Source: Takakia lepidozioides (lineage: Eukaryota; Plantae; Bryophyta). From it: DNA of 64,000 nt. Both the position numbers and the translations under genes were made by a program. Location of the stretch: contig CM060732.1 in assembly GCA_030704615.1 (NCBI GenBank), positions 70,990,001-71,054,000 of the forward strand, in the 5' to 3' direction. This document shows positions 1,701-44,798 of the stretch, in pieces. The notes under the pieces are model-generated. The model did not search any database. It was not told where the DNA came from and saw only the letters and a program-made list of their open reading frames with translations. Every line of letters starts with the position of its first letter. Position 1 is the first letter of the stretch.

Positions 1701-1705
1701 CCATG

Positions 1706-2430: not shown

Positions 2431-2432
2431 CT

Positions 2433-2444
2433 TGGTATCAGAGC
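2433..2444 (+). promoter_or_regulatory. Primer binding site, tRNA-iMet
   Basis: TGGTATCAGAGC, 2 nt after the LTR end. Confidence 0.93.
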
Positions 2445-2485
2445 CTAGAGTTCAGTACGCGATCGTCCTTGGGATTGGCCTCATC

Positions 2486-8677: not shown

Positions 8678-8702
8678 CCATGGGCATGACTTTCTTGAAC
8701 AA

Positions 8703-9716: not shown

Positions 9717-9867
9717 ATGAAGGGAGAGACCCCTGCATCTGAGGTCCTCTCTGCCCTTCCCTGAGCTTCACCTGAGCCCCCTTGTTGCCTTGAGCACGTT
9801 GAGGTAGTGGTTGGCTAGGAGCACCACTACCCCGTGGTGTCTCCTTAGCAAATCCCACCATGACCAC

Positions 9868-19611: not shown

Positions 19612-19742
19612 ATAGAATGGTTATCCCGTGTCTATCATAATACGATAGTCTTGAGAAGCGATTGTTAGATACATATAATGACCAATTTTGATTATTTGGA
19701 TGTAAACGTGTTTCATTTAATATATGATATGTTCATAGGTTG

Positions 19743-19827
19743 TGTCGTGCGCATACGTATCGCTACACAACTACATCGCTGTCCAAACCACACCACACAT
19801 ATATGCACAATAAAGTAGTCTGCCACA
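19743..19827. repeat. Repeat A1 (85 bp, TG..CA), copy of the B2 terminal repeat
   Basis: Three differences from 20185-20269; flanks GGTTG and GTAGA are not a TSD. Confidence 0.9.
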
Positions 19828-19830
19828 GTA

Positions 19831-20183
19831 GATAAGAAAACTAGAAACACACTCTTAACACAAGAAACATGAAATCCATCTCGTCATCACTCTTTCAGAT
19901 AATAGTCGAGCCAGGGGCACCCCAAGCTATGGGGACTCCACCCCACAACAACCTATCCTCCCATCATAAGCACACTCAGTTCTAAACGATGAAGGAGCTC
20001 GGTCGCGCAGGCTCAACTCGAGAGAGATGAGCTGCGCGACTGCCGCTCTCGTGAAGATAAGACGGTTCAGGTGTCAAACTAAACTTGACACCTGATTTAA
20101 CACTTGACCTAAATCCAAGTGTTAAATACAAATAACTAGCTTTATTCTAGTTGTTTTCACACTGTGCTTATTTAACTTGACAG
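19831..20183. repeat. Repeat B, left copy (353 bp, hairpin-rich)
   Basis: About 4 differences from 44447-44798. Confidence 0.95.
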
Positions 20184-20529
20184 CCGTCGTGCACATACGT
20201 ATCGCTACACAACTACATCGCCGTCCAAACCACACCACACATATATGCACAATAAAGTAGTCTGCCACAATCGCCCCCCTAGCTGGTGGATAGGTCCCTC
20301 TACCTCCAGATAGCTACAAGATGTAATAGCCACAGCCGTACTAAGTCCTCTATCACTGTCCCTATTGTACTCAAACTCTATAGACCAAGAGGCCGGGTAC
20401 AAGAGTAGCCCCATCGTTAGTCGCCGTCTTGCAATCTGTGAACTTGAGCTAAGATCTCGTGTGTTCAAGGTCTCCTAGTAGCTTGGCCTTTCATTTCTTG
20501 TTAGCCTTCCATGGTTGTATCCACTCCCA

Positions 20530-22997: not shown

Positions 22998-24039
22998 TGT
23001 CGCGCGGCTTTTACTCACCCATCCCTTCGCTATTCGAGGCGGAAACTCCAAGATAGAAGAGTTGGAAATCTCTAAGTACTCAGCCCGCGCAGAACAATCA
23101 GTCATGACCTACAGCTAGTGTATCATGGGGGTGTTTCCTATTTGTTTCCCTTTTGGTATTCATGTTAGCTATCTTACCATTGATAATTAAGTATCAGTTT
23201 GCTTTATCAATCTATTGGATTCCATCAACTCATCCATTCATTCCACAGCTTCACTCAGATCTCTCTACACAGTGTGATTGTATCGTAAAAGTATCCGATT
23301 ATGATTTATCAGGTATCAGGCCGAAGCCATTGTGTCTCTAATCTGCTCTACAATATCATTACAGCCTTGCATATATCAAGCATCTACTCATCATCTCTCT
23401 ATCTTCACTTCGTTCTTCATCTCTGCCCGATCCCCTCCTTCCTGACCAAGAAGTCCTCCTCCGAATGATCTCCTCAATTCCCCGTTTCTTCCCTTATCTC
23501 CTATCCGTGGTTCTAAACGTTTCCCTCACTAACCGTCGTCTGTGAATTAACATGTTTCCCCACAGTCGTTCCTGTCCTACCTCCGTTCCCTATGATCGTG
23601 ACAGCTGTGTCAAGCTGTGACTGGCTGTGGAAACTGTGACGGGCTGTGACTGGCTGTGCGATGTGCTTGGCTGTGTCGGGCTGTGACTGGTGGACTGGCT
23701 GTGGCTGGTTGGCTGTGTCGGGCTGTGTGTGCTGTGTGCGACTGTGACGGCTGTGTCGGGCTGTGTCTGCTGTGACGACTGTGTACGGGCTGTGTGTGGC
23801 TGTGTCGGCTGTGACGACTGTGACGGGCTGTGTTGGCTGTGTCGGCTGTGACTACTGGACGGGCTGTGTTGGCTGTGTGGCTGTGACGACTGTGACGGGC
23901 TGTGTAACCCCCCTCTACAGTGCGCTGCTGTCACCCCTAAGGCTCCTGTTGGTCTCAGTGTTGGTCTCAGTCTGTGCAAAAATTAAGGGTACCCTACAGA
24001 TCCCGTATAAGTGTCTAAGTCCCCGACAGTCCTCTAACA
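22998..24039 (-). repeat. 3' LTR of element C, with GGCTGTG array at ~23598-23905
   Basis: Matches 35273-36279 and abuts the PPT. Confidence 0.96.
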
Positions 24040-24077
24040 TTACCCCTTCCCCCCTCAAAAAGCCGTGTCCTCACGGT

Positions 24078-27000
24078 TTACTGATTTCGATTAGCAAACC
24101 TTTGTGAGTGAGCACCTTTTTGACGTTGAGAGTTTCGTGGCGGACTGTGTGTACGAGCCCGAGGTCTGTCTCTGGTTGACGGAGATGGTTGATCACTACC
24201 TGGATAAGTGAGGCCCTCTGGAGGCTGATATCGAGGTAACCTTCCGGCATAGGAGACCCCGTCGCTTCTTCTCTGCCATCTGAATGCATAGTCTTCTCCC
24301 ATGTCAAAAGAATTCGGTGAAGAAGAAACAGTTGTATCAGAATCCTCATCGCCTCTCAGGTGTTTTAATTTTCGAACTTTTTGTGGAATCATCTGGGGCA
24401 TACAATGCTGTCCTACCATGTCTGGAAGTTTGTATTTTACAACTTGGTGTAACCGCTGAACAGCAAAATTGGTGTAGACACTGAGCTCCTTGTCTGTCCA
24501 GGTGAGTGGTGGGTACCAATTACTGGTGCAGCGTGCAAGTATTTCCATGCCACATGTCCCTTATAGAAAATGTCATCAATGCCGAATTTTGTGTTGACAA
24601 ATGGTTCCAGGCCGCTTGAAACCATGAACGAAATTGAGAATCCTTTTGCATCATAACTTTTGGGTCATATAGGTACATATGAGGTGGCACCGAAGGTAAT
24701 ACCCAATGATCTCCACTGGAATAACTCAGAAAGCGTGTTTGCATCTTTTGTTGCTCAATGTGGTAACGTACCAGAAAACAAGCAGCGTAGTATAAACCCG
24801 CACCCATGACAATACTTGCTACCTCCTTGGTCTTGGTATAAATGAGTCCATGTACAACCTGGAAAGCAATCAATTCCCTCAACATGGTACCTGCCTCGTG
24901 CCAGTATTGTGCAAAGTGATGATCTTCAATATGTCGATTGTTCGGAAGAACTTTAGTCCTAGTTGCCACTGGCAGCCAAATACGCATGATTTGGTAGTAA
25001 TGTGCGAATGACTGCGGAGGACTAAATTCTTTCCAAGCCAAATCCAACATGATGGGAATTTGGTTGAAGGGCATAATCATAGCCCTACTGTACTCCCTTG
25101 CAGCTGGAGTTTTAGGTGGGTTAAAAGCGGCATTGCCCCATACCTCCGGCTGTGGTGGCTGTGGTGTGGTTGTTGTAGTAACCACAGGTTCAGCTACTGG
25201 TACAGTGACTTGTTGTGGTGGTGGTGGTACTGGCTCTTGTATCATTGGCATCTCCTGCACCTCCTGTGAAGACTGAAAAGCCAAAGTTCTGGCTTGTAAA
25301 TAAGAAGCCATTAGCTGTTCCTGAGGGATATAGACTCTTTTGTCGATGTTTGAAGTGAGGTCTTCCACTTGAGTCTGCAGTCCGTCTACATCCTCTTGTA
25401 ACTCTGCTATCCTACTATAGACATTGTCTATAGTAGTTGTGGCAATGTTCTGCACCTGCAGCCTGAGCTCATTCATCTCGCTTTGGGTGAGCTTTCGTGG
25501 TGCTTTGCCCTCTACTGGCCCTTGTGCTAACCAGACCTGCATAAGGCTGTTATCCACCAAGTTGCTTGTGGTTCCCCTGAGAGTTTGCTCCTCTCTTAGC
25601 TTGTACAATTCCAACTGCTGTTGTAAAGCCTCCATGCGCTTCGCCTGAGGTTCAACCAATTGCGCATAAGCAGCAAGTAGATTATTGGCTTCCTTCCAAG
25701 CCTTGTTATTGACCGCGATTTCATTTCTATTGGCCATGATGGTTTGTTGCAACTCCACGATGTGCTTCTCTTGATCAGCTTCAATCTGCCTGTATTGCTT
25801 GAAAGTATCTTCATTGCGACAGATTGTATTCTTCATATCGACAATGAGCTTCATTTGCTCAACATTCTCTTCTTCTGCCTTCGTACATTTTTCCGCTTGA
25901 CTGTTTATTTCTTTTGTAGATTGGTCAAGCATAGTTGTAATGTAGCACATTGTATCGCCATCCTGTCATGCACTGTCTGCAACTCCGTATGTAGTGCATT
26001 CACTTCTTGCAACTTGCTTTCATGCTGCACCTGCATTTGGTATAGCTGTTGCTTATGTGCTTCGTGCAACTGGTCTTGCGCGAGGCCTGCCTCAATCAAT
26101 TGTTCCTTGGCCAATTGCAAAGCCATTTCTGTATTTCCCAAGTCCTGCTTCATCTTGAGAGTGACCTCTTCATCGACCTTGTTTGCACACTCAGTGGCTA
26201 GTCGAGCCTCAAACTCCTTCCTGAGTTCCTCTCTCAAGGCTGTCAATTGGGTAATTGGAACATGGGATTTGACATAAGTCCCCAACAAATTAAGTGTCCT
26301 GCCTATGGAACTCATCAGCATTGCCTGTTGAGGGTCATCATGGTGAGGTTGCTGCTGTTCCTCCTGATCTTCAACAGTGTGATGTCTCACGAACCATTCA
26401 GGCCATTGTCCCACCGGATTTTCTTCCTGAACTACTTCATCTATCACCGGTGCTACAGTGTCATGACCTTCCGCCTGTGGTACCTCCGACACAGGTGTGT
26501 GTATTATATGCACCTCAGGATTTCCCTTGGGCAACTGTTGCACCTCTGGGATCTCTGTCTCCTTGACCAGACCAGAATATTCATAGAGAAGGTCCCCCTT
26601 CTCCATTTCTGCCACTATCTGTTCTGTAGTTGGAATATCTAACCCTTCTCTTTCCAAATCAATTATTTCTGGTTGAGCTGCATGGATAACTTGTGACCTT
26701 GTGACAAGTCGATCAGCTGGCTGTGATGGTTGTGATACAGAAGTAACTTCCTCCTCCCTCTCTGAAGGTCCTGCTTCCAGTAATAGCATTTCTCTGTGCT
26801 GCTGTGCCCCTTCCTGACCATGAGCTTGGGAAACATTATCATGCGGAATCCGTGAAGCCAGTGGATCCGCCACTACAGTCTTTCCCCGTCTCTGCCTCTT
26901 AGTCTCGGGTTGCCCTGCTAGTCCACCCTCACTGTGTGAAGAGCCTTGCTCTTCCATTGCAGTTGTTTCTGGCTCAAACACTCCCATTTCCTTTCTTTCT

Positions 27001-27632
27001 TGCGCATCAAGTATGCCAGAATCAAGGATTATTTGAGCAATGATTGGGCCAGACACTATGATAGGAGACTTTGCGGTAGTACCTTGTAATCTTTTCATCT
27101 CCTCTACCAGTGCGTTGTACATTATGTCCGCCCATTGTACCTCTTGTCCCTTCAGGCCTTTGAGTATTTCCTCCGTGAAGGATCTGCTCAAATACTGTTG
27201 GTTCTGTTTCATGGCAATCAGAACGTTCAATACCTGGCCTACCTCTTTTAGCCCTGGGTACACAGCCTTGGTACAAGCATAACCCTGAGTTTTAAAGAAA
27301 CTCCCTTCTTGGAATAAGTCCCCTATTTGCAGTCTTGCCCTGTGTTCCTCCACATGCACCTGACCTGCTGGCAATCGAAACAATTGCTGGAGGTATAGGG
27401 GAGTAATCATTAATTCAACTCCCTTCACCGTTGTTGTTCCTGTCCTTGGCTCAAAGTTCTGCAAAAATTGTAACATGTACTGTCTATGGTGTAATGTCCA
27501 ATCTAGGCTTTGCAATCCTTGCAATCTCAGCTCCTCCAGTATCTGTATCGCCTGTGGGGTAGCAATCGTTTGTTTCTGCAGAATTGTGGTGCTCTTCACC
27601 CTGATTTCCTCCATTCCTCTCACTCTCTTCAT
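24078..27632 (-). pseudogene. Additional ORF of element C downstream of pol (env-position ORF: plant-transposon-protein-like domain plus long coiled coil), two frameshifts
   Basis: ORFs 25905-28622, 24520-25950 and 24078-24548 overlap head to tail. Likely ATG at 27632. FLQNF..TVKGVELMITPLYLQQLFRLP..VQWADIMYNAL..GPIIAQI resembles Athila-type extra ORFs, followed by Q/E-rich heptads. Confidence 0.65.
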
Positions 27633-28320
27633 TTTAGACTCACAGAACTGTTTTGGCTGTAACAACTGCAGGAATGCCTGTAGTGCACAAAGCATAAACG
27701 TATGGTTGCCGCAGAAAGCTATGGGTAATTTCTTGTAAGCCTGCGGGGCTTGCAAGCATCGCTCAAGAGAAAAGCTCCGCTCTGTCCTTTCGTGTCTATG
27801 CCACTGCGTAAGTAATATTGCGAGCGTATAGTCTGTTAGTTCCTCCATAGTTTCCAAGCTATAGCATTGATGGTCTGTCCCGTCGAGACGCCCGTTACTC
27901 AGAACGACGCCGCCTCTTGCGCTCAATTTCCCTCCATTTTCTTGATCCTTTCTCTGGTTTTCTATTGGCTGTATCCGCTGTGACTGGATTTTAGATTTTA
28001 TTTTCTTTAGTGGACTTTCCCTGTTGGATAGTCCACTAGGATCACACATGTGACAAGAATTCCGCTTTTCTGTACTTGCCGTTCGTTCCGTTTCCCTTTT
28101 TCCGTATTCATTAATGGGCCCGCCTTTCATCCCTTTTGACGGCCGTTCTTGTCCTCTTTCTTTTTGACACCTGTTCTTGCACTTCCTTCTCGGCTGTGTG
28201 TCGCGCCCTGACCTCCACGTGTCTATTTTTAAAGTAATTTCCGTTTTCTCTTCCGTCAGCCATTTTCCTGAAGTTATTATGCGTCCACTTGTCACTGATT
28301 CTATGGATCGTGTAACTTTA

Positions 28321-28622
28321 GTAGGCTGTGTTGAGCTGTGACAGGCTGTGTCATACTGTGTTACGCTGTGATAGGCTGTGATGCACTGTGGTAAGCTGTG
28401 ATAGGCTGTGACACGCTGTGGTAGGTTGTGATAGGCTGTGTTGCGCCGTGCTGGGCTGTGATAGGCTGTGTCACGTTGTGATGGGCTGTGATAGGCTGTG
28501 CTTTGCCTTGATGGGCTGTGATAGGCTGTGCTTTGCCTTGATGGGCTGTGATAGGCTGTGCTTTGCCTTGATGGGCTGTGATAGGCTGTGTTTGCCTTGT
28601 GGGCTGTGATAGGCTGTGTCAC
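28321..28622. repeat. GGCTGTG array (10-bp period, 30-bp higher-order unit) directly after the pol stop of element C
   Basis: ATAGGCTGTG-CTTTGCCTTG-ATGGGCTGTG repeated, with variants. Confidence 0.92.
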
Positions 28623-31600
28623 GTTGTTTTGCCCGCCCTGGTCATATATGCTGGCCTAGCGACAAGTGCTCCATACTCCGTTCGTAACACTGGTGCAGCC
28701 CGTGACTGCTCTTGCGGTTCAACATGCAAATCATGCTGCAAGGGTTTGTCATGGATACCACTGTACCCCTTCAACTTATTTGCATTGACTCTTCCCAGCA
28801 TTTCTTTGTTAATGGTTTGTAACATGGCGGTGTTGTTATCATACATCTTTTGTATGACATAAGGTCCTTTCCATGGTGATTTAAGCTTAGAAGCTTGAAT
28901 CTTTCCTTTCTTCTGCAACCATAGAACCAAATCCCCCGTCTTAAAAGTCTTTAACTTGCCTTCATCAAACTGTTCCTTTCGCTTCATCTGAATTCTGGTC
29001 ATATTATCAGCTGCATCAGCACGTACTTCTTCCACATGGTATAATTCATGTTTCCTGACCTTGATGGAGTCTTGCAATTCCATTCTTTTTCCCCACTCCG
29101 TTCTCATGGTAGGTAACAGGAATTCCACTGGAAGTAAGGCTTCCATACCATAAACTAATTGGAATGGTGTATACTTAGTGGTGACTTTATATGAAGTCCT
29201 GTATGACCACAAAGCTGTCAGCAGCTTTGTATCCCAATCCGTTCTGTTTGCATTGACTATCTTAGCCAAGATAGTACATAGTATTTTGTTGGTAGCCTCT
29301 GCCTGCCCATTACCCTGTGGGTAATATGTTGTACTCTTTCTATGCACAATCATAAACTCTTTAGTCAACAACTCAATGGTCTCATTCATGAAGTGACTTC
29401 CTTGATCACTGATAAATTCTAAGGGACAGCCAAATCGTGTAAGTATGTTCTCGTACAGGAACCTTGCTGTGGACTTGGCTGTGTTGTCCCTCAAAGCTTT
29501 AGCTTCCACCCACTTTGTAGTATAATCAGTGGCTATAATTATGCAAGGCCATCCTTCCAGATCTCTGCAAAGGTCCTAGCCTCTGACATTCATCACACTT
29601 CTGACAATACTCGTGTACATCTTTGAACAAAGTAGGCCACCAGTATCCTGCGAGTAGTATCTTTCTACTGGTAGTCTCTTCTCCAAAATGACCTCCAGCC
29701 ACTCCTTTATGAACTTCCGCCAAAACTTTATTTACTTCATGGTGGTACAAGCATCGTTTTAGTACTCCATCAGGTCCTAACTTATACATTCTGCTTCCTA
29801 CCATAGTATAAGGTAAAGCTTTGATAGCGATTCTCTTCCTCTGCTCCTTACCATAACTAGGTGGGCACTGACCATGAGCAAGGTAGTATCTGATTGGCCA
29901 CTGCCAATCTAACCAGTCATCTGCACTTCCCTGCACCTCCACTGCAAAGAGACTCGCATCTGGTAATTGATCATCTATTCCTGTGGCTGGTTCTCCTGTT
30001 GACAATCGTGACAAATGATCCGCCACAAGATGCAGTCTCCCAGGCTTGTAAACAACCTCGAACTCAAACTCGTGCAAGATTATCAACCATCTTGCTATTC
30101 TTCCGCTTATCAGAGGTTTGTTTACCAGGTATATCAGAGCCTGGTGATCCACATAGAACATAAACTTCTTGCCCAACAGGTAATGCCTGAATTTCTTCAC
30201 TGCATAGATCATTGCCAATGCTTCTCTTTCCGTTGTGCTATAGTTCCTCTCAGCACTGTTCATCAACCGGCTAGCATAGTACACAGGTGAATCTATATTC
30301 CCTGTAACATTCTGGGCTAACACCGCTCCCAACGCTTCTCCTGATGCATCGCAGTGAACATGGAATACTACATGCCAGTGAGGGTTAATCAGCACAGGTG
30401 TAGTTGTTACTGACAGTGTAAGTTCCTCAAATGCCTGTTGACATTCAGCTGTCCAGGCAAACACTGCATCTTTCTTCAGTAGTTTGCTCAATGGTGCTGC
30501 TATTTGTGCATACCTTTTGACAAATCTCCTGTAATAACTGGTTTGCCCAAGGAATCTCCGTAGACTTTTAACATTCACTGGTGGTGGAGAGGCTTTAATG
30601 GACTCTGTCTTTCTGGGATCCACAAGGAGTCCCTTCTTACACACAATGTGTCCCAGAAGCACCCCTGAGTTCACACAGAAAGTACACTTCTCTGGATTCA
30701 GGCCCAGACCTCTCATCCTGCATCTGGCCAAACATAACTCCAATTTATGCAAGTGCTCACTCTTAGAGCTGTACACACTGAAATCATCCAAGAATACCTG
30801 CATGAAATCATCCAGATACTCATGAAAAGATTCACTTATCACTCTCTGAAAGGTCGCTGGTGCATTACAAAGTCCAAAGGGCATGACTTTGTATGCATAA
30901 GCCCCCCAGTCTGTGATGAAAGCTGTTTTCCCTTGGTCTTCTTCTGCCACTTGCACTTGATTATAACCACTGAAGCCATCCATGAATGAGTACATCTCAT
31001 GGCCTGCCACAGTGTCTAATACTGCTTCTGTGAATGGCAAAGGGAAAGGATCTTTCTTCGTACAAGCATTCAGCTTCTTATAGTTCACACATACTCTTAG
31101 TTTGCCATTCTTCTTGGGAACTATAACAATGGGTGACAACCAAGTTGTATACTCTATTGGGTATATAAACTTAGCCTCAGCCAACTTCTTTATCTCTTCT
31201 CCAACCTTCTGTGCGTAGTTGGGATTCATTCTATACCTCGCCTGCTTGATTGGTACTGACCCTGGTTCCAGTTCAATCTTATGCTGACAGACTTCAGGTG
31301 GTATCCCTTTTAGATCCTCATAGCTCCAAGCAAATACATCTCTGTATTTGATGAACAAGCTTTTAGCTTCTTCGAAGAATTCCGGCTCCAAATCAGCTCC
31401 TACTTTCACCATCCTCGGTTCCTCTTTAGTTCCCACATTTACTTCCCTCACCTGCTCATCAGCTGTGATTGTCCAACCAGTCACCACTTCATCCTGTAAG
31501 CTCACAGTGGCTGGTTCTTCTAGGATTTCTATTTCTCCTTCTCTTTCTTCATAGAAATGTGATGGGTAAATGCTGGTTTCCTCTTCAGTTGGTGTTGCTG

Positions 31601-34600
31601 TCACTACACCACAGCAGATACCTCTCAAACAACTTAGGCTTTCCAGCCGCATCTCTGCAACCTGCTCCCACTCTGGGTGTGCAGCAAATAGGGTAGCTTC
31701 CTGCTCCTCATCCAGTCCTCCTTTCCAGTCATACTCTCTGACTCCTCGAGGTCTTCTTGTAGCAGGTAATCTACTAGATTTCTTTGTGGTAATTTGTATC
31801 TCGTGTATCCCATTATGCACGGTTAGTAACTGAGAATTCCAGTCATGGAATACCCTGGCCTGTTTCAGCCACGGACGTCCCAATAATAAGGAGTAAGCCT
31901 CCATGACTTCATCCATTTTTAATACAGTTACTGTGATCATAAAGATCATTTTCTGTATCTGTATCTTAACTCCTCTTATTAATCCCAATGGCTGTACACT
32001 TCTTTGATCTGCCATTGTTACTGTAAATGGGGCTGGTTTCATGTTACTTAGACCAAGCTTCTTCCTTAATTGGTCTGTCATGATATTTACTCCAGAACCA
32101 CCATCTATCAGTACATCAGTTAGTTCTGTGCTTCCAATTCTCAATTGGATTACTGGCATAGAATCATCAAAGTCCATGACTGTTTCTCGCCCTTCCGGCT
32201 TCACATTATAACTGGTCACCTTGCTGTTCAGGTCTGTGTTTCCTGTCTCTTGGGCAATTCGATTGATTGCTTGATACAGCCTGTGCCTACAATAAGGTGC
32301 CACAGCTAATAGCTGTCCAATGGTAATTTCTGCTTTGGTCTGACATATTACTTCAGCCAAAGTCTCTTCATTACTTTGCATGTCTGCATCTTCTTTTTTC
32401 CTTTCTTCCTCACTCCCTTCTTCATCCGAATCAGAGGAATCTGCCACAGGAATATCAGTACTCTTTTGCATTTCCCTTATAGTATCTGCCACTTCCTTGT
32501 GCAGTTCCTTCTCATCTTTCCAAGTCTCTTCATCTTCAGGCATATCATTGCCACTTCCATTCTCATCTTCTTCCTCTTCTACTGGAGGTATTAGTTTGGC
32601 TTTACTTCTTGTTACTATCATTGTACTTACTTCTGGTACAACACATGGCCTAACCATGTGAGCTGCCACCACTGGGCCCTCATTCACAGGAGCTCTCATC
32701 TCATTCTGGTGTCTTATCCAGAATGAACAGGCTGCCTTGCGATGTCCTGGCTGATTACAATAGTAACATAGCTCTTCACCATTGGGTCCTCGCCCTTGGT
32801 CTGTTCTTGGATTATTTCTATAATCCTGATTCCCGGGCTGGTAATTCCCCCTTGGATTACCCTGATAGTTGCCTCTGGAATTTCCTTGGTAATTCCCTCT
32901 TGAATTACCTCTCCCTTCCATGCCATTGTTATAACCACCAGACCTACCATAGTGGTCCTGATCATTGTTTCTTCTTGGCTGGGGCTGCACCTGATGCACC
33001 CTTACTTGCCTAGGTTCTCTTGCAGCTGTCCTTCTGTTGTAGTAACAATTCTCAGTAGAATGGTTATCCATTTTACAGATAGTACAGTGTTTCTCCTTCA
33101 TGTGGCATTCTGTGGTGGTATGGCCTTCATTCTGGCACTTTGCACACCATACACCCTTCCTCCAATGTGTTGCAGCCTCTGTGGCATACTTCTTCAAGAT
33201 TTCTTCCAATTTTTTTTCATAGTTATCCCTCTTCAACTTCTCCTTTCTCTTACTCTTTCTTTTTAGTTCTTGCTCTTCTTCTTCATCTGACTCATCCTCA
33301 GAGTCCTCATCTTCTTTTTCTCTCTCCTGAGCATTCCCAATTGCTCAATTCTGTTCGCAGTTTCAAATGCCTCCTCCACTGTATTATGGGGTAACATATC
33401 CACTTTCTTTTGCAACTCTGGTCTTAGTCCACTCACAAACCAAGTCTTCTGTAAACCGGGTGCTGGTACTGCAGCCAGCTTTTTCATCATCAATTCCATC
33501 TTCTCCATATACTCTTCAACAGTTTCATGCTTCTTCTGCTTCAGCTGTTGTAAACTTCCATACACTTCATCCTCAGTTTTACTTGTCCTGAACCTATTTC
33601 GAAATGCTGTATTCAAGCCATTCCAGGTTAGGAAATGATTATCAGGGAATCTTGCATACCATTCACTTGCTTTCTTGATAAGTGAACAAGGAAACAGTCT
33701 CATCTTGGCATCATCGCCATTCTCATTGTTCACTATACACATGTGCTCAAATTGGCTAATGTGTACATCGGGATCCCCTTTTCCTGAATATATTGGAAAG
33801 GGTGGTTTTGCCCGTGTTGGTTGTAACGCCATCTGTGGCCCTACCTTCTGCCCACTGACAGGTGCTGGCACCCTTGCTGGTGCTGGTCCTTCTGGACCTG
33901 TTGTTTTTGTGGTGGATCTTCCACCAAGTGGTGGCCCTTGAGCACTCCCTGCTTCTGGCCCCACGATATTCACAGTATTCCCAGCTTCAGTTGCACTACT
34001 TCCCACACTCCCTGTCCCCCCAGAGCCAGATCCAGGCAGCCCGCCTGATCCCCCTGAGCCGACACCTTCGTTGGCCTGTGATCCAAGTGCTCCACTTGAT
34101 CCAGGTCCAACGGGTTGGGATGTCCTGGTTGTAGTCTCAACCTCAGCTGTTGGGTCTACTTCTTCATATTCTTCCTCTTCTAATTTCTTCTCTCTGTTTT
34201 CATCCTCCAAGTTCTGCCCTTGGGTTTCTTCTTCACTCATGTAACTCAACTGTAATGGTGTTGGAGAGTCTGAACTCTCCGTTGGCTCTGCCACATCCTC
34301 TTCTCCTTCTTCACCTTCTGCTTCAGAAACTGGAGTTCCTGCTTTTGGTGTTCCATGCCAACTCTTATCAAAGATTTCTGTCAAGTCTTTTATCCAAGGA
34401 TGTACCTCAGATCTTTCACCTCGTGATTGATCTTCTTCCTGTACCAATTCCCTTAATCTTTCTTGCAAAGAAACAGAAGGAGTGGCATCCAACTCTAGTT
34501 CTTCCGGTATAGGTGATGCACTCTTTGATCTTAATGGTGTGAGAGGTCCAGATGATTCCCCTATGTCTATTCCTCTCTCCCAAAGATATGGATAATTAGC

Positions 34601-34663
34601 TTTCAGATAGCTTTCTCTTTTTGCTGAATATCTCTGTCGTCTAGCTTCTCTTTCATCACTCAT
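28619..34663 (-). pseudogene. gag-pol: gag-pol of element C (three CCHC knuckles, PR, RT, RH, INT); frameshift near 33315 and a deletion in INT near 29545
   Basis: YSGKGDPDVHI, CAKCQNEGH, CTICKMDNH, CYYCNQPGH, VLIDGGSGVN, FLDDFSVY, CDAS, ISDQGSHF, GPY. The PLQP..WGLDF segment carrying the first catalytic Asp is missing between RMALH and IATDY. Confidence 0.93.
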
Positions 34664-34684
34664 GTCCCATGTCTTTCATTTCTT

Positions 34685-35380
34685 TTAATGTGGCAATAAC
34701 CAAAACTCTCTTCTGTAATATCTCTCGTATATGCCTGGGTTTCTTTCAAGCTTCAATGCACCCTTGGCTATACTTGAAGTCTCCGTTACCATATAACCAT
34801 ATGGCAAACAAGTCTGAAAAGCTGTTCTTGGTGTGAGTTTGATCCACAAAATATCCTTTGGAATCCAATTCTTTACCAGTACAAGCTCTTCATGCATATG
34901 AGTATAAACATTCACCTTTCTTTCTTCCCAGCCTTCAAACTCTACTCGTTTAATGGATAGCAATGCTATCACATAAACCAATGTTGGTAACCAACGTGCT
35001 CTTCCTCTACAGGCTACCTGATAAATCTTTATCACTCCTTTCTCCAGACCCCATTCTGGATCAGCATCATGCACTCGTTTAAGAATATTTTCTTTACAAC
35101 CGTCTGGCAATTCCAAGAACCTTTGAAAGAATTGTTTGGACAATCTTTCTTCCTTCGTTCCACAGGGAATTTGATTCACTTCAAATTCTTTAATGGTCCA
35201 ACCACCATGATCCCACCAGATGCCTGTCACATCTGGTTGTTCATGTCTCAGGTCCCCAGTATGGTCGCCAAATGTCGCGCGGCTTTTACTCACCCATCCC
35301 TTCGCTATTCGAGGCGGAAACTCCAAGATAGAAGAGTTGGAAATCTCTAAGTACTCAGCCCGCGCAGAACAATCAGTCAT
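34685..35380 (-). CDS. 231-aa ORF of unknown function upstream of gag in element C, starting inside the 5' LTR
   Basis: Open from an ATG in the LTR across the PBS and ends 21 nt before the gag ATG. No motif recognised. Confidence 0.45.
   Translation of the reverse strand: MTDCSARAEYLEISNSSILEFPPRIAKGWVSKSRATFGDHTGDLRHEQPDVTGIWWDHGGWTIKEFEVNQIPCGTKEERLSKQFFQRFLELPDGCKENILKRVHDADPEWGLEKGVIKIYQVACRGRARWLPTLVYVIALLSIKRVEFEGWEERKVNVYTHMHEELVLVKNWIPKDILWIKLTPRTAFQTCLPYGYMVTETSSIAKGALKLERNPGIYERYYRREFWLLPH
35252..35270 (-). promoter_or_regulatory. PBS of element C, tRNA-Arg-like
   Basis: Minus strand TGGCGACCATACTGGGGAC, 2 nt from the LTR; resembles the TGGCGAC...CTGGGGA Arg PBS of Tat/Ogre elements. 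Confidence 0.75.
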
Positions 35381-36279
35381 GACCTACAGCTAGTGTATCA
35401 TGGGGGTGTTTCCTATTTGTTTCCCTTTTGGTATTCATGTTAGCTATCTTACCATTGATAATTAAGTATCAGTTTGCTTTATCAATCTATTGGATTCCAT
35501 CAGCTCATCCATTCATTTCACAGCTTCACTCAGATCTCTCTACACAGTGTGATTGTATCGTAAAAGTATCCGATTATGATTTATCAGGTATCAGGCCGAA
35601 GCCATTGTGTCTCTAATCTGCTCTACAATATCATTACAGCCTTGCATATATCAAGCATCTACTCATCATCTCTCTATCTTCACTTCCGTTCTTCATCTCT
35701 GCCCGATCCCCTCTCCTTCATGACCAAGAAGTCCTTCTCCGAATGATCTCTCTCAATTCCCCGTTTCTTCCCTTTATCTTCCTATCCGTGGTTCTAACCG
35801 TTTCCCTCACTAACCGTCGTCTGTGAACTAACATGTTCCCCACAGTCGTTCCTGTCCTGCTCTCCGTTCCCTATGATCGTGACAGCTGTGTCAAGCTGTG
35901 ATTGGCTGTGTGAAATTGTGACGGGCTGTGACTGGCTGTGCGACTGTGTTTGGCTTTGTCGGGCTGTGACTGGCTGTGTGGCTGTGTTGGCTGTGTCGGG
36001 CTGTGTCGGCTGTGACGACTGTGACGGGCTGTGTCGGCTGTGTCTGCTGTGACGACTGTAACGGGCTGTGTTGGCTGTGTCGGCTGTGATGACTGTGACG
36101 GGCTGTGTTGGCTGTGTCGGCTGTGACTACTGTGACGGGCTGTGTAACCCCCCTCTACAGTGCGCTGCTGTCACCCCTAAGGCTCATGTTGGTCTCAGTG
36201 TTGGTCTCAGTCTGTGCAAAAATTAAGGGTACCCTACAGATCCCGTATAAGTGTCTAAGTCCCCGACAGTCCTCTAACA
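35273..36279 (-). repeat. 5' LTR of element C, with GGCTGTG array at ~35878-36145
   Basis: Matches 22998-24039. Confidence 0.96.
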
Positions 36280-36900
36280 GAATCCTGTCCATGACTCTTT
36301 GAAACTCAGCAGGAGCGTTTTTAAGCCCAAATGGTAAGAACCGCCACTAGTATAGGCAATCCTTCTCGTGCTCATTGATCCCCCATAATGCCGTCTTTTG
36401 CTTATCCGCCTCCTTGATCGGCAACTGGTCATATCCGGATCGTAAATCCAACGTGCTAAAGACCTTGGCATGCCCAATGGCATCAAAGATCTCCTCTGGT
36501 GTCGGCATAGCATACCTATCGGACTTGGTCTGACGATTTATAGGCCGGTAATCACCGCACATACGTCTCTCCGTCCAATTGCCATAGACATCCTTCTTGG
36601 CTGGCATCACTGTGGCTGAAGCATACTCTCCCCCAGATAGCTCCACCAAACCAGCCTCCCAAAGGTCCTGAGTTCTCATCTGAATCAAGGACCTCTCCAT
36701 GTTACTATATCTATAGGGTCTCCAAAAGATTGGCGTGTCAGTAGCCAATTCAATGCGAATCTGTTGACCCTTCAGTGCTCCTAAGTCCTTCAAACTGAAG
36801 GCAAAGCAGTTCCTGTAAGCCCTCAAGAACCGCCGTATACGTCGTCTTTCCCCTTCGGTGACTATAGGTCCAACATCAGGCTCCCAGTTGTTCTCCGTGA
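36280..36900 (-). pseudogene. B2 reverse transcriptase N-terminal part
   Basis: PYRYS..YASATVMPAKKDVYGNWTERRMCGDYRPIN..LDLRSGY..LPFGLKNAPAEFQRVMDRIL. Resumes at 22992 after removing element C. Confidence 0.93.
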
Positions 36901-37259
36901 CTGCAACCTTGAGTCCAGCAGGCTTAGAGGTAGAAGACGCGTCCCGTGGTTGCTATGCTGCAACCTCTTGAGCAGTGACCACTGCCTCCTCTGTTAGTGA
37001 CAATGTCTCATCCTGCCCCATCATCCCATCCTTGAGGACCTCCTCAACCCGAGAAAAATCCCCAACCTGATCCATCACCGCCGCCTTGGCTGCCAACTCC
37101 TTCTGAACCTCGAGCACCTCCCACGTGTGCCATGGATGCGGCCTGCACCTCGTGGTCCTTACTTGCTCGTCCCCACTCACTGCCTGTACCGTCTCGGTAG
37201 GCAGGGAGACCATGAAGGGAAGTGTACTCCGTACTCTGCGCTGCTCAGCCATAGCCAAG

Positions 37260-38190
37260 CTGATAATCCAGGTCAAGCAATTGAGATCCATTACTTGCCC
37301 CAACACCTGACGACGTGATGCCTCAGAAAGAGAGGGCACCACCATGGTACCAGTGGTAAAACCCATCGCCCGCTCGCGCTCGTTAGCATTGGGCTCCACT
37401 AATTGTTGCAACTGGCTATCCCACAAGAGGCCAGGTCCACCATCCCGGAAAGCATGAGATCCTGGGAAGCTGAGCAGTGTAGGTAATGTTGCTCGTGGTT
37501 GACCCACCCTGTTGACCACTGCCAAAGGCGAACGGTCATCGTGTCTCACAAGTTGAGACTGCCTCCCTGTGTCCAAAATGCTGTCCACTATGAGGTGTGT
37601 TGGCCGCTGCACCCCATCAAATGCACGCTTGAGCAGTGCGGGTGGCATCAAGTTAGTCCACCATAGCCGTGGACGATGAGCCCGTGACCCCACTGCAGCT
37701 GCATCCAAGCCACGACCGGACTTGATGCACACTGGCCATCACCCTGGCCCGAGAATCACCCATCAGTGGCACATTCTCCAAGATGTATGCTGAAGATATA
37801 GCTTGATGAAGCTGCAAGTGGCGCAAAACCCGCACCATCTCCCAAAACAGACCCGTCCTCGAGTCTCGCAATCCATTGCCATGCCCGGCTGATGAATGCC
37901 ATTGGCAGGACCAACCTGCCACCACCAGATCAATGGAGCTAACCTGCTCCAAATCCTGCGCCCCCAGCAACGAAATGTCTGCTGGCAAGGCTTGTTGGTA
38001 TCCACGAACTGCAGACACTGGCAACAAAACATGGTACTGCTGTACCAACTGAGCAACATGGCGCAGTGAGACGCGTCGTGTAGTCTCATCCCTCTCCACA
38101 TACAGGTAACGTCGAACTCGTCCACCTGCCTGCAGCACTGCAGCCAATCCAGTGCTGATCCCGCCAAACAAGTCCAGAAGGCATATGCCT
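37260..38190 (-). pseudogene. C5-cytosine DNA methyltransferase domain (DNMT3-like) embedded in B2 Pol
   Basis: Motif I LLDLFGGISTG, II YVERD, III ADIS, IV DLVVAGWSCQ (catalytic Cys), V GLRDSRTGLF, VI YILENV, VIII AHRPRLWWTNL, IX ERERAMGF, X RRQVLGQVMD. One frameshift near 37705. Confidence 0.92.
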
Positions 38191-38548
38191 TCATCCGGGC
38201 ACTGCCACACGAGAAGTGTGGTGTCCAATGGCGACAACTGAGGTGGTCCTGGTGCAATCACCGCACTCTCCTCTTCTCCTGACGGTACGAAGGCCTCTAC
38301 CCAGGCTTGTTGCACCTGTCCATCAGCAGTCTGCTGCAAATCCTTGCTCGTACCCCACAATGGAGTGTGAGCAACCATGGCAGGCAACTCCGCCGTACCA
38401 TGCATGTCATCCTGCTCTGCTGGAGGTGGCACATCCTCTGCATGGGCATTGCCTTCCAGCAACTCTCCAGGCCAACTAACTGCAGCTGTAAAGGCGGCTA
38501 GTGTTTGCATCTTGCCCCGCTGGGCAGCAGCAATACCCCCAATGAATG

Positions 38549-39649
38549 TCACAGGGAGCTGTGCACGACAACATCCCCTGACTGCCATCCAGGCCTGTAG
38601 GATGCTGACTCCTCCCAAAAGTCCAGGGTGAAGCCCATGGGGTATAACACTGTCCCACCAACCAGGACATCGTAAGAGACCACGTCTGTCACAATAGCCT
38701 TGGCTCGCATCACTGAGCCATCTCTAGGATGATCCGGCTGCAGTCTAATGGCCAACTCATGCAGTGTCATGCCCCGAGCCTGCTCTGATCCTCCCACAAA
38801 TGTCTGTATCTGGAAAGGACAAGGCTCCATATCTGCCTCCATGAGGCCGAAACCTGCAATAGCAGCTCTGCCCAACATCAGTGGCTGAGCTCCCGAGTCC
38901 AATAAGACCCGAAGTGGCCGGTACTTCTTGCCTGCCGGTCCACTCAATGAGAAAATGCCCTCATGGTTGTCTAACAAGACAACTCCAGGTGTCACCATGG
39001 CGCGCTCAAAGGCTGGCCTAGCTGACAGCTCCGTCAACCTGGCAGCTGCAGCTTGCCATGGCGCAACCGTGGCAGTCTTGACCCTCAAATCTGAGGATCC
39101 CTCTGCCACTATACCTTCCACTAACTCCGCAGAAGATGAAGTGACCTCCCCACTCTCACAGAGTGTTGCTGCTAGTCTGAACACTGCAGCTGGTCTTACC
39201 CCCGGCGTCGCAATCATGGTTGCCAAGAACAGTGGGGCTTGACACACAGAGGTGGCTGCCCCCAACAACACACCGGCTGCACTAGCCTTGGCAGCAGGTG
39301 TCAGTGTTGCACGTGTAGCTCTCCCCAATGGCATAGTAACCTCCGCCTCGGTAATAGTCGGGCGAGAACTAGGTGCCATGGATGGCATCGACACAGTCTC
39401 CGCCAATGTGAATGACTGAGGAAGCCTCGCCTGACGGCTTGCCTCCCCACGCTGTGGATCCAATTCCACCTCTGCACCTCGTGGCTCAGGAACTCGTGCT
39501 GCTCCTCGAGTCACGGCTGCAGCAGACTCCACCAGCTCTAGTGGTAGCGCTGCTCCGCACATGAATCCCATGCCTCCCATATCTCCTCCCTCAGGAGCAG
39601 GAGGTGGACCATCCCGCCTGGGAGCCGGTACCGCCTGAGCTGTGGCCAT
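38549..39649 (-). pseudogene. B2 aspartic protease region
   Basis: VLLDSGAQPLMLG ... YDVLVGG. Confidence 0.8.
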
Positions 39650-39778
39650 GGCAGCGAGCCTCTACTCTAGCTACTGAAGCCGGTTGGCCATGCCTTGGTC
39701 AACACCCTGACCTCCGCGTCCTTGGCCATGTTGAGCTTGCCCTTGGCCTGCACCTCGTGCCGGACCACCTCGTCCTCT

Positions 39779-41052
39779 CTAGGCTGGTCCACCTCGCCCC
39801 CGGCCACCATTGTTCCCTTGGAACTGGCCTGGGCGCAACTCAGGATGCAAGTCATAACACTGGGCATCTCCATGCCCATACTTGCCACAATGCTCACACT
39901 GCAACTGTGCAGGCTGTGCTTGTACCGGCCTTCTGCCACTCTCTGGGCAATCTCTCTTGACATGGGGTCCTCCACATGTCCAACATATCACCCCTGGTTG
40001 TTGTTGGCCTGCAAAAGATGCCACAGGCCTCTGCACCTGAGGTCCCCTGTAAGCTCCATGGAACTTGGGTTGGGAAACCTTGCCCCCTGACCACGCTGTT
40101 GGGCAGTCCCTTGTGCCTGTGGGCTGGCAGCTGTGCCTCGTGCAGGCATGTCCTTGCCAAATCCAATGGTAACAACTCGCTCCTCCACTATATTGAGCTC
40201 AATCCGCTCAGCCAGCAGAAACACATCTGCTAATATGGGTTGGGCTGCTTGTAACAGGGTTGCATCTCGCACCCTTCTTCTGAGCTGTTTGTCTAGAATT
40301 CCATACCAAAACTGGATTGCCTGAGCTTCAGTAACCCCTTGGGTCACACTTATCAAGCGCCTCATACGAGTGTACGCCTCTCACAAGCTCTCACTGGGTT
40401 CGCGCTGGAAGTCTTGCAAACTTCGCAGCTTCTCAGTCTGTACACCTTGGTAGTTCCTCCGCAACTCCTGGAAGAACTCCACCACCGGGCTGAATCTAGG
40501 CACATGTGTTGTAGTCGTGGGAGGATGAGTAGTAGCACCTTCTCCAGAAGTACTGGCACTACTAGTGCTAGCTGTGGGAGGTATTGGTGCTGATGCCGCT
40601 ACTGGTCGTGTTGTTCCCCGAGTAATGGAGACGTAGTCAGGTGACCAATACATCCTCCACTCTTCAATTTCTGCTTCATGTCCTCGCCTGAACTCGTGGT
40701 AATCGTCCATAGGCGGGCCTTCCAAATGCTGGAACAATCCCTTCCACGCCATGAATGGGGTGAACAGCTGTGGATTGCGCATCTGCTGCAAATCACACCA
40801 ACTGTCGAACTCCTGGATAAAGTCATCCAGCTCGATTGTGCCCACAGCTCCAGAGTACCTATGAGGTCCCTTGGTAGCTCCATACATCTCCTCCATGTCG
40901 TCCCACAACAATGGCGAAGAAAACTGCACACTTGTTGATGAAACCTCCGGGTCAGTGTCAGATTCTACAGTAGTTGAGGGTGGCGGTGAAGGTGGTCTGA
41001 ACCGAATACCTCGTCTTGTGAACCCACTCTCACTGTTACTGCCTGCAGCCAT
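39779..41052 (-). pseudogene. gag: B2 gag with two CCHC knuckles
   Basis: ORFs 40381-41052, 39988-40365 and 39779-40036; CWTCGGPHVKRDC and CEHCGKYGHGDAQC. Confidence 0.85.
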
Positions 41053-43019
41053 ACTCCCCTCAAAACCCTTGGGTAAATCCGTGATGACACTTCAATGTGC
41101 ACCTCCCCCACGTGACACTATAAGGCTCTAGTACTAATTCTAATAGTGACACGGGTGGGCACCTGTTGCAGTTTAAGGGTCATATCCCAGTGGCTCAGGG
41201 CACCTGCACCTGCATCCACCGCAAGAACTCCTATGGTTGGCTGGTCATCAACCCAGCCTCACCATAGAAGAAACACTGGTGGTCTTGCTGGTCATCACTC
41301 CAGCCTCACCACCGACAGCATACTCTAGGATTGACCGGTGATCAAATCCGGCCTAATCCCTATGAAAGCAAGTGCCCACACAAAACCAACATGGCGCACA
41401 GTCAAGCATGCAGGTGTTGGGGGGGATCCAAACACAAGAAATCAAAACATCAACACCCCCACACCAAAATCCAGCTGCAATGCTGATCGTGCAGAATATC
41501 CCAGCCCAAAACCCCGGACTGACTGGCCTCCACCAAGAAAGGCTTTGGCAACTACAAGTACAAGATAATGAAAATAGTATAGAGATGGAGGAGAAGAATA
41601 GAAGCCCGACCAAGCAAGATCTAATCCTGATCTATGCTATCAACTGCCAGACTTCTCTCAAAGTGCCTCGCTCTGCATGATGGTAAGGTGTAGGAGGTAT
41701 ATCTATGTCCAGAAACCCGTCACTAACCTTGTCCCAAGCTACAGTAGCTCGCTCTAACCAACCCTCCTCCTCTTTCTGCCAAGTAGAAACAAAGCAATAC
41801 TCCCTATCTCCCGCTCACTGAACACTAAAGAAAACAAAGGTAGGGTCTGATAGTCTCTCAACTCGAAAGCTTTGAGACGGTTGCGGGTGTCCTCATTGCG
41901 AATGACTGCATCTCCCTCAAGCAAAACAAACTCGTCATTGCTAATGAGCCCCCGCTCATGGTTGCTTTGTGCAGAGTGTGTCCGGCTGCAACCATGTCTG
42001 ATTGCACAAACTTGTGTAGCTCTTGCTCCTCTGCTCTAGTACACCACAGCCTTGTGGCTGAACACCTTGGTCCCCGGGGCTGTCTTTGGCTGTGTTCCAA
42101 GCCTAGCTTTCACCCACTTTGGTATTTCACTTACAGCTGCAGAACTGCTGGCTCCAACAAAGTTCTGACTGTCCAAAGCAACATTGAGGCCCTCAACACC
42201 AACTACAGCAGTTTGTTGTCTACTGCTAATGCCTGACTCCCAGTATGCAATCAACTCGTCCAACTATTCTCCACTCAAATCAAATCAGTCTGAGTTCCTT
42301 GGGAAACATAAATCTTGTCCCCTTGTGTGCACAGGCTAAGAGACGAGACCTGCCCTTCAATTACGTCCTCATTTCCCCCAGCCATACAAAGAGGACATCC
42401 ACAGATTGGTCTCTCATATAGACCAGAACAGGTTCTAGAAACAGAATTGTGGATCTTTCACGGCACACTCACACTCTAAAAATTCCATAGATTTTTAGCA
42501 GAGTCCCAAAAACTAAATCCAGATCGAGATAGGTAGATTTCCTCTTTCTACAGCTATCCCCTCAAAAACTGAGTCAAACAGAGCCCATTTGACAAAGATT
42601 TGGCTCTAAATCATTTAAATTAGATCAAAGGTTTTTTTTTTTTTTTTTAATTTAATAAGTTTTTCAAAAGTTACACCCAGAATATCTGGTAACTGGTTCC
42701 CGGTTCCCTAAGTTCTATATGGTTTCCTAGGTTCCCTGGCCACGTGCCCTATAATTCCTAGGATTTCAGTTGTGTTTACAAATGCACCCCCCACAGCTCT
42801 TGGTTACCAGTGACCTGCTCTCCTCCAGTCGAGATCCGTAGCTATGCCGAGCCTTAATCCTTTGCACCAATATTCCCAACAAAAGCAGGAGCACTTACAA
42901 TGCAACCCCGGAAATCACTAGAGCTAACTAGCTTTGATCAAGAACGCTTACAGCCTTTCATGCGCGCTGATTTTTCAAGGTGGCAACAACAGATCTGCTA
43001 TCACTGATTGTGTAAGCCT

Positions 43020-44050
43020 TTACATGGAGTTGGCACAGGCTGCCCTCAAGTTCTGGATTGTAAACATAGACCGAGCAGGTCGTGTAGTGAGTTGGGCCCC
43101 TTCTGTCTTCAAGGAACCGGCAGTTTCAGATGACAACCCATTAATGCCTAAATTGTCATCATTCTCTTCAATCTCAGCACGACCACATGAGCAATTCTTG
43201 CACGTTTTTTTTTTTTTTCCAGCCTTGCCTACTTCACAGTCATCTGCAATAGGTAATTTAGGTGGCTTGAGGTCATCTTCAGTAAGCAATGCATCCTCGT
43301 CAACAAGCTCATCCATGTCGTCGTCCACAGGGGCCACCTTCCAGGAGTTGGAAACAGGAAGAACAATGTCTGTAACATCTCGTGATGACAGTCTCACAGT
43401 GGCTCCATTGGTCTGCACAGCAGCCTCTGAAGAAAACGAGCTACCAGTTGCCAGACCTTGCTCAACAGCTGCCTTCTTCTTGATAACGAAAGAAGATCAT
43501 GTTTCCCATGCAGGCTTCTACCCGCTCACCGCAACAGGTTTGAGGAGTGGACCTTGACTGGATCCCACAGAAACAGACGTGATGCCGCTACATGACTCGG
43601 CCAACCCAACACCTTCCACGCACTCAACCACTTTCGAACCAACAAAACCTGCCAGCAAAAGACCATGCTCCAATGCTGCTTGTGTCTGCACAGTAGCAGC
43701 ACCAAGCCTTTGACGCTCATCTGAAGCTACATCTCGACATGTTAGGGGCTCTTGCACCCAGAGCAGGCCGCCTGGTCTAAGGATCCGTGCTGCCTCATGG
43801 AGCCAAGCTGCAGTGTGGTGGCCGGGCGTTTCGACTAGAGAAATTATTACGTCCACAGATGACGCCTCTGCCGCAACCTTGCCACCAAGCTGTGAGACGT
43901 TGGTGATCACTGCCAATCCCTTGCCACTGGCGGATTTCTCTTCAAAGGTCTGCACAGCCCACAAAACAACTGTGGCTGGGAGCGCCGCAGTGTCCGTCAC
44001 CAGAAGCACCGCTGCCTTCCCTGCCTACGGCGGTGCACGGCTCTCATCCA
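43020..44050 (-). pseudogene. DRE2: Intronless anamorsin/DRE2 (CIAPIN1) pseudogene
   Basis: Methyltransferase-like N-domain (SSVDVII..EAARILRPGG), [46 protein letters not shown]. One frame with stops at ~44025, 43518 and ~43497. The second Cys cluster is lost. Confidence 0.88.
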
Positions 44051-44446
44051 GCCAAGCAGTCAGCAGCGCAGCCTTTCTTCGATCCCCCTGTAGTCCGGAC
44101 GGACGACAAAACCGTGGCTTGGAAGAGCGCCCAGCTCCACACCCACTTCACCTCCTCAGCTCCGCATCACTACCTCCAGCTTCACAGCAATGAAAGTGTT
44201 GCGCCTCGGGTATGGCCTCTCCTTGCCTCTAACACACCACGGGGCGATTGGAAGGCGGCCCCCTTATCAGTGTCCCACCATTGCGACTGAGGATGTGAGA
44301 CGAACTCAGGCTAGAGCCATTCTATGCTCATTGCTTGAGCTGTGTACAAGACCATGACCATCTATATTATAATAGTGCTTAAAAACAAAAACATCATATC
44401 TAGCTTAGCACTGGAAAACTAGATAGAGAGCTCATCTCTCTCGAGT

Positions 44447-44798
44447 GATAAGAAAACTAGAAACAAACTCTTAACACAAGAAACATGAAATCCATCTCGT
44501 CATCACTCTTTCAGATAATAGTCGAGCCAGGGGCACCCCAAGCTATGGGGACTCCACCCCACAACAACCTATCCTCCCATCATAAGCACACTCAGTTCTA
44601 AACGATGAAGGAGCTCGGTCGCGTAGGCTCAACTCGAGAGAGATGAGCTGCGTGACTGCCGCTCTCGTGAAGATAAGACGGTTCAGTGTCAAACTAAACT
44701 TGACACCTGATTTAACACTTGACCTAAATCCAAGTGTTAAATACAAATAACTAGCTTTATTCTAGTTGTTTTCACACTGTGCTTATTTAACTTGACAG
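44447..44798. repeat. Repeat B, right copy
   Basis: Direct repeat of 19831-20183. The upstream flank AGCTCATCTCTCTCGAGT (44429-44446) is the inverted complement of an internal 18-mer at 44633-44650. Confidence 0.95.

Follow-up and report, generated by a model that had tools for sequence, protein, structure and literature searches.

Why should a retrotransposon in a moss genome carry its own DNA methyltransferase, and what would the enzyme do there? The question is raised by a stretch of 64,000 nucleotides from Takakia lepidozioides (assembly GCA_030704615.1, contig CM060732.1, positions 70,990,001 to 71,054,000 of the forward strand; hereafter "the window"), in which a Ty3/Gypsy element on the minus strand, 19743-44797, includes a C5 cytosine methyltransferase domain between its protease and its reverse transcriptase (RT). 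An earlier note on this DNA had read the domain as an integral, DNMT3-like part of Pol, and had suggested that the enzyme is packaged and pre-methylates the complementary DNA (cDNA) or the insertion site. Our analysis suggests, with moderate confidence, that the window holds a dead member of a Ty3/Gypsy lineage of green plants. In this reading, the lineage's first frame joins Gag, protease, and a DNMT3-like methyltransferase (Gag-PR-DNMT), and the enzyme, likely packaged in capsid-level amounts, is predicted to methylate new DNA copies of the element, either ahead of their integration or in the course of it. From its 5' end onward, the element is laid out as follows:

44446..44797, minus strand: A1 repeat of 352 bp (TG...CA), forming the element's 5' end, with 4 substitutions relative to A2
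44429..44446, minus strand: predicted self-priming primer-binding position, 18 nt, the exact complement of a stretch within A, folding as a closing stem
42632..44200 (limits approximate), minus strand: anamorsin/CIAPIN1 pseudogene, intronless and poly(A)-tailed (PF20922 and PF05093)
39700..41052, minus strand: gag, with the frameshift at ~40084 and four stops (57-63% identity to the first open reading frame (ORF1) of relatives P0049 and P0109)
38570..38950, minus strand: aspartic protease, LLDSGA at 38905-38888 (motif, and a weak PF13975 match, E=0.022)
37250..38198, minus strand: C5 cytosine methyltransferase domain, DNMT3-like, with unrearranged motif order (PF00145 and motifs)
36947..36955, minus strand: conserved in-frame stop closing Gag-PR-DNMT, TAG-CAA-CCA (CARYYA context), a predicted readthrough site
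36280..36952, minus strand: N-terminal part of the RT (PF00078)
22998..36279, minus strand: unrelated nested element with 1-kb long terminal repeats (LTRs) and a 5-bp target duplication, splitting the RT
20674..22997, minus strand: C-terminal part of the RT (YIDD), RNase H, HHCC zinc finger, and DDE integrase core (PF17917, PF17919, PF17921, PF00665)
20533..20673, minus strand: PHD finger at the integrase C-terminus (PF00628, E=3.1e-11)
20270..20280, minus strand: polypurine tract immediately before B1, shared by relatives
20185..20269, minus strand: B1 repeat of 85 bp, separated from A2 by a 2-nt spacer (the B|A junction)
19830..20182, minus strand: A2 repeat
19743..19827, minus strand: B2 repeat, the 3' end of the element (ends CA)
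19739..19742, and again at 44798-44801: 4-bp target-site duplication

Every methyltransferase motif named in the earlier note was located in order on the minus strand: LDLFGG at 38177, VERD at 38099, GWSCQ at 37916, LENV at 37781, RAHRPRLWWTN at 37684, ERERAMGF at 37381, and RRQVLGQ at 37315, with the RT motif RMCGDY following at 36565. The domain also matches PF00145 (E=2.6e-9, 37.4 bits, for a cut-off of 22 bits), and the intact relatives P0049 and P0109 align colinearly, in agreement with the proposed lack of introns. Gag, protease, methyltransferase, and the start of the RT lie on one side of the nested 13.3-kb element, which sits within the RT; the RT is interrupted at 36280/22997 and continues from 22997, with YIDD at 22966; RNase H, integrase, and the PHD finger come after it. 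Position 36280, taken earlier as an edge of the element, is thus the insertion site of the nested LTR element, and the split-repeat ends and the PHD finger had been overlooked along with it. The order of protease, RT, RNase H, and DDE integrase is that of Ty3/Gypsy elements, and no tyrosine recombinase family matched the element frames scanned, which contain rve and HHCC integrase domains instead. The element is no chromovirus: a PHD finger rather than a chromodomain follows the integrase, and its RT is distant from that of a chromovirus elsewhere in the window. The RT of the nested element is likewise far from that of its host element in the tree.

We next asked how widely this domain occurs at the same place. 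With the N-terminal half of the domain as query, 45 longer homologs were retrieved, 25 of them with bryophyte species names (21 Marchantia polymorpha, 2 Calypogeia fissa, and 2 Sphagnum). The closest homologs are up to about 73-77% identical, and those from bryophytes are filed at NCBI solely as hypothetical or unnamed proteins. The motif [GR]WPC is matched by 34 of the 45, the remainder being mostly truncated or spliced gene models, and of the seven motifs, the six Gag-PR-DNMT proteins checked in M. polymorpha each have at least six. A scan of metagenome contigs with a pattern containing Pro yielded 73 loci out of 158 matches; these loci are largely one family and some represent the same insertion twice, so that counts among them are not independent, and since they were found via the domain itself, relatives lacking it could not appear. 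Among loci with room on the contig, the protease lies upstream in 47/54 and the RT downstream in 48/55. Catalytic residues are retained across the family, with the Cys in 72/74 loci and the preceding Pro, which the search pattern contained, in 71/74.

The ratio of non-synonymous to synonymous substitution rates (dN/dS) points in the same direction. Among locus pairs with dS>0.5 (122 pairs), it is 0.20 for the domain and 0.12 for the RT, while between the window and the loci (13 unsaturated of 45 pairs) it is 0.11 for both. The medians over all pairs are higher (0.54 for the domain vs 0.41 for the RT) because close, decaying copies dominate them. As the earlier note had anticipated, the domain therefore evolves at dN/dS<1, near the RT for diverged pairs, which indicates purifying selection across the family. 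Its presence at the same position in dozens of loci from several genera also bears out the reading of an integral domain rather than a one-off insert. Both halves of the window domain group with element domains of Marchantia, Calypogeia, and Sphagnum (support 100), and the window RT falls in a fully supported clade with bryophyte elements; the methyltransferase tree was made by a quick method only and the RT tree with FastTree, from hand-picked rows (59 and 33 of the fetched proteins). A public run of this organism (X1) gave 31,345 contig records on 36200-39200 at an identity of at least 85%, a number that reflects a large family and is not a copy number.

Against this background, the window copy itself reads as dead. 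It has four frameshifts (~40084, ~38567, ~37703, and ~21440) and seven stops in addition to the one at 36955 (40383, 39781, 39673, 39664, 36349, 22909, and 21123). The codon ahead of the catalytic Cys is TCC (Ser), in line with the proposed decay of PC to SC, and the residue after CQ is Trp, where 70/74 loci have Gly. The single frameshift recorded earlier holds for the domain proper (~37703); a second one lies in the interval between protease and domain (~38567), with the other two and the seven stops unrecorded. Many run X1 contigs carry letters that are absent from the window copy near 37705 and 38570. At the same time, A1 and A2 differ at just 4/352 sites, and the insertion is thus fairly young. 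So many coding lesions in a fairly young insertion suggest either that the template moved in trans was itself defective beforehand or, in view of the 19 gap events between the LTRs of the nested element, that some of the indels are assembly errors.

To place the enzyme, we compared a profile built from 30 family members with solved structures; DNMT3A ranked first (91 bits), then DNMT3B, DRM2 (55-66), and M.HhaI (40). A structure model of an intact relative (mean predicted local distance difference test, pLDDT, 90.8) returned DNMT3A/B in all listed ranks, the top match having E 3.5e-19 and a template modeling (TM) score of 0.84 on the target. Mammalian DNMT3A/3B are thus the best solved-structure match, yet they are only ~22% identical, and the family domain is without PWWP or ADD. 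Judged by profile and fold, the designation "DNMT3-like" holds as a description of kind rather than of descent: four small phage C5 methyltransferases score 68-84 bits on a profile from the same alignment, nearly matching DNMT3, and the methyltransferase tree contained no host DNMT3 sequence. The S-adenosylmethionine (SAM)-binding motif, the catalytic Cys, ENV, and RxR are all retained in the land-plant clade as well as in distant relatives.

A wider search returned 269 clusters at E<=1e-30, with named distant relatives in Closterium, Monoraphidium, Haematococcus, Chromochloris, Cymbomonas, and Hariotina. Two layouts can be told apart: protease-DNMT-RT in bryophytes and Closterium, and RT-RNase H-DNMT-integrase-PHD in the named chlorophytes (66 proteins among the chlorophyte-type relatives). 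The two also separate in both the methyltransferase and the RT trees. Some algal-type relatives carry added Tudor or G-patch domains. Viral contigs gave a single weak match, and prokaryote genomes a single one (L075), a full Gypsy element in an uncultured-cyanobacterium bin ("Synechococcales") that is most likely eukaryotic contamination.

Among described systems, the Klebsormidium element pointed out in the earlier note stands as the closest precedent. KnitGypsy-Dnmt3 of Klebsormidium nitens is described with DIRS-like repeats, a methyltransferase in the Pol ORF, and a proposed role in cDNA methylation (PMC5890265). It shares with the window family the Gypsy domain set, an intronless, unrearranged DNMT3-like domain with catalytic residues (at family level), and purifying selection; the Ka/Ks of about 0.2 or less taken as the mark of that type compares with 0.11-0.20 for our diverged pairs (PMC5890265). 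Going by the figure legend of the paper, the repeat arrangement A-coding-B-A-B is also shared (PMC5890265). In contrast, the Klebsormidium methyltransferase shares one ORF with the RT, whereas here the two are in the same frame with a conserved stop between them (PMC5890265). That element was reported from one charophyte as an independent acquisition, whereas the close relatives here are from liverworts and Sphagnum (PMC5890265). A PHD finger, a self-priming site, and a 4-bp target duplication are present in the window element, and the main text of the KnitGypsy paper does not contain the term "PHD" (PMC5890265). Our homolog search matches included no protein named Klebsormidium. Overall, the window element is probably kin to KnitGypsy-Dnmt3, differing in gene layout, and an arrangement described in one alga would thereby extend to land plants.

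Other systems share single features. SymbioDIRS-Dnmt3 of Symbiodinium has a DNMT3-like domain and the A-coding-B-A-B arrangement, and de novo methylation of CG has been demonstrated for its enzymes alone among these elements; it is, however, a tyrosine-recombinase element, unlike the window element with its DDE integrase, protease, and target duplication (PMC5890265). A Symbiodinium protein scores just 51 bits on the family profile. The PHD-bearing Gypsy elements of Chlamydomonas (Gypsy-7a_cRei, and REM1 cited there) share the PHD finger in the polyprotein, but their domain list includes no methyltransferase and they have LTRs at both ends (PMC9940879). Self-priming Gypsy elements of the Tf1/Tcn1 type likewise use a primer site complementary to their own LTR, without a tRNA, but are chromoviruses with ordinary LTRs (PMC6317226); the main text of that survey is without the terms "PHD", "methyltransferase", and "Marchantia" (PMC6317226). 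In the text covered, a 2025 survey refers to no cases beyond the earlier ones from streptophytes and dinoflagellates (PMC12344493). In the literature covered, with most subscription papers outside its scope, the domain is unreported in land-plant elements, and a split-repeat Gypsy element appears only in the 2018 legend.

The gene layout bears directly on where the enzyme would act. Instead of lying inside Pol, as had been proposed, the domain closes the Gag-protease frame in this clade: full-length relatives from Marchantia and from a 49%-identical clade are Gag-PR-DNMT proteins of 1228-1437 residues, ending 70-165 residues past the last motif. The continuous frame from protease to RT expected earlier is interrupted by the stop at 36955-36953, a feature of the family. 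An in-frame TAG or TAA occupies the same codon in 41/44 loci (38/48 by a looser count), and CAA comes next in 42/44. In L075, 50% identical in the domain, TAG-CAA-TCA is the sole stop between frames of 1162 and 905 codons, which, together with the shared codon in the loci, rules out decay as the origin of the stop. The window context (TAG-CAA-CCA) fits CAR-YYA following UAG, the tobacco mosaic virus readthrough signal (PMC2754532). Single-ORF forms occur in more distant relatives, e.g., P0101 and Closterium. If this stop is read through only occasionally, each Gag made would come with the methyltransferase, and RT and integrase would be rare products. This layout makes packaging more plausible, and packaging with pre-methylation of the cDNA appears, from sequence comparison, the most likely role.

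The ends of the element are equally unusual. They begin with TG and end with CA, and a target duplication, a polypurine tract, and a primer site are all present, yet neither end is one complete LTR: the arrangement is A-coding-B-A-B, with A at one end and B-A-B at the other. B-A-B follows the polypurine tract in 7/73 metagenome loci (L013, L034, L048, L052, L061, at the same site as L048, L063, and L068), while L004 reads B-A up to the contig end and other loci end in a single B. Four independent insertions (L048, L052, L039, and the window) have 4-bp duplications bracketing A...B, and an equivalent of the primer site (17 nt) is found in L052, L049, and L043. That A and B belong to separate elements can be rejected, since in three independent insertions of the A-coding-B-A-B form a single target duplication encloses both A1 and B2. 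A 5' A preceded by B was found neither in 17 loci (14 distinct flanks) nor in the window. In eight loci as well as in the window, the B|A junction reads CA-GC-TG or differs from it by one or two bases; it is palindromic, and its halves form the two ends found on inserted copies. The A|B junction retains the bases following the polypurine tract, which is what joining cDNA ends head to tail would produce. Most simply, B+A would be the working LTR, and the integrase would open the joined cDNA at B|A. Cutting of a palindromic LTR junction by an integrase has been claimed for foamy virus (PMC1180852). Split ends of this kind imply that integration follows a route not usual for a DDE integrase, and software seeking paired terminal LTRs would mis-call these elements.

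Taken together, these features suggest the following cycle for an intact member of the family. Occasional readthrough of the stop would provide RT, RNase H, integrase, and PHD finger, and the protease would free the methyltransferase within the particle. Self-primed reverse transcription and the polypurine tract would yield cDNA with B+A as working LTR; its ends would then join, and the DDE integrase would open the joined molecule at the palindromic B|A junction within it (CA-GC-TG), which would account for A coming first and B last in inserted copies. The methylated cDNA would enter the genome pre-marked, which may damp expression or evade surveillance. A related retrotransposon DNMT3, that of SymbioDIRS, methylated CG de novo in yeast (PMC5890265).

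Several observations weigh against this reading. The Klebsormidium domain gave no methylation in yeast, a result its authors call inconclusive (PMC5890265). CpG observed/expected is 0.48 in the element vs 0.35 in the nested element without a methyltransferase; being no lower than in the nested element, it gives no footprint of self-methylation, and none specific to the element was found in CpG or CHG depletion. Many distant relatives of the algal type have Glu instead of Pro before the catalytic Cys, reading GWECQ for GWPCQ (144 vs 184 with Pro among the fetched proteins). In the main metagenome family, the stop is followed by CAA-CCC, which departs from CARYYA by one base, and in 41/44 an ATG lies two codons past the stop, making re-initiation a possible alternative to readthrough there; the window copy and L026 have no ATG at that place. 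The mirror form A-B-A-coding-B is missing among the 14 distinct 5' flanks, though a freely cut two-LTR circle should yield it. The non-independence of the metagenome counts belongs here as well.

Of the alternatives, the one that survives best, though we find it doubtful, is that the target of the methyltransferase is host chromatin in the nucleus, at or near the insertion site, where the enzyme would arrive together with the integrase and PHD finger, and not cDNA in the particle. The PHD finger is likely a chromatin reader, and the position of the domain between RNase H and integrase in chlorophyte-type relatives would tie it to the integration complex; in the window clade, however, it lies in the Gag frame, far from the integrase and ahead of the stop. 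It is unlikely that the enzyme instead marks one B|A junction, or the finished strand, so that the integrase cuts the other, in the manner of restriction-modification. Inserted copies do keep one uncut B|A junction while the other is cut, always the same way round, the junction contains CG and CHG sites, and both Gypsy elements combining the domain with split repeats, like split-repeat DIRS elements, bear methyltransferases (PMC5890265), but DIRS elements without one exist (PMC5890265). About as unlikely, in our view, is that the domain has been retained for binding DNA or RNA, or for particle structure, with little or no DNA methylation: the inactivity of the Klebsormidium domain in yeast (PMC5890265), the Pro-to-Glu changes, and the missing CpG footprint would fit, whereas the retention of SAM-binding motif, Cys, ENV, and RxR would not. 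Finally, the domain might be a host DNMT3 retrocopy that was captured once and has since been decaying neutrally. The broken state of the copy and its acquisition of a host anamorsin retrocopy would suggest this, but it is refuted to near certainty by homologs at the same position in several genera, purifying selection, the protease and RT flanks in the loci, and the placement of both domain halves and the RT among bryophyte elements.

What was formerly one alga with an independent capture becomes a broad green-plant lineage, and with the natural full-length Gag-PR-DNMT frames in M. polymorpha, for which transformation and methylome tools exist, self-methylation of cDNA can be put to the test in a land plant. 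Enzymes that such elements bear, being filed as hypothetical proteins, may also confound bryophyte DNMT counts and methylation mutants. More speculatively, and with a low probability in our view, this could be an old Gypsy lineage, from green algae to mosses and liverworts, that combines a methyltransferase made at capsid level, integration through a joined-end palindrome, and self-methylation choosing the junction, a control of retrotransposon integration akin to restriction-modification, and that would constitute a hidden source of de novo methylation in Marchantia.

The window copy probably also carries a passenger. The anamorsin pseudogene (42632-44200, minus strand), a single frame with two stops, lies between A1 and gag within the unit bracketed by the target duplication, and the interval from A to gag is 3.7 kb in this copy vs ~1.35 kb in relatives; it was either carried along in transposition or inserted later.

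A second copy of the family lies at 785..11267 on the minus strand and shares 74-91% DNA identity with the first. Its gag is joined to integrase-PHD, with protease, DNMT, RT, and RNase H missing, and it ends in a single, longer B; it is the older of the two and is possibly a non-autonomous derivative. It is interrupted by a chromovirus (1705-8678, plus strand) that is young, its LTRs differing at 1 site, with a chromodomain and a 5-bp target duplication.

The nested element at 22998-36279 (minus strand) is a Gypsy element with a 232-codon frame preceding gag and two long frames after the integrase (25905-28655 and 24520-25965) that have no Pfam match; its LTRs differ by 19 gap events. Related 9-10-bp tandem repeats at 11480-12560, 23600-23900, 28300-28630, and 35870-36150 are common to its LTRs and interior and to a separate stretch upstream of the second copy. 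In the remainder of the window (46000-64000), remains of DNA-transposon-like genes are found at 48-52 kb and 59-62 kb, along with 116-bp units that form a large inverted repeat (56.2-57.1 kb vs 62.9-63.7 kb).

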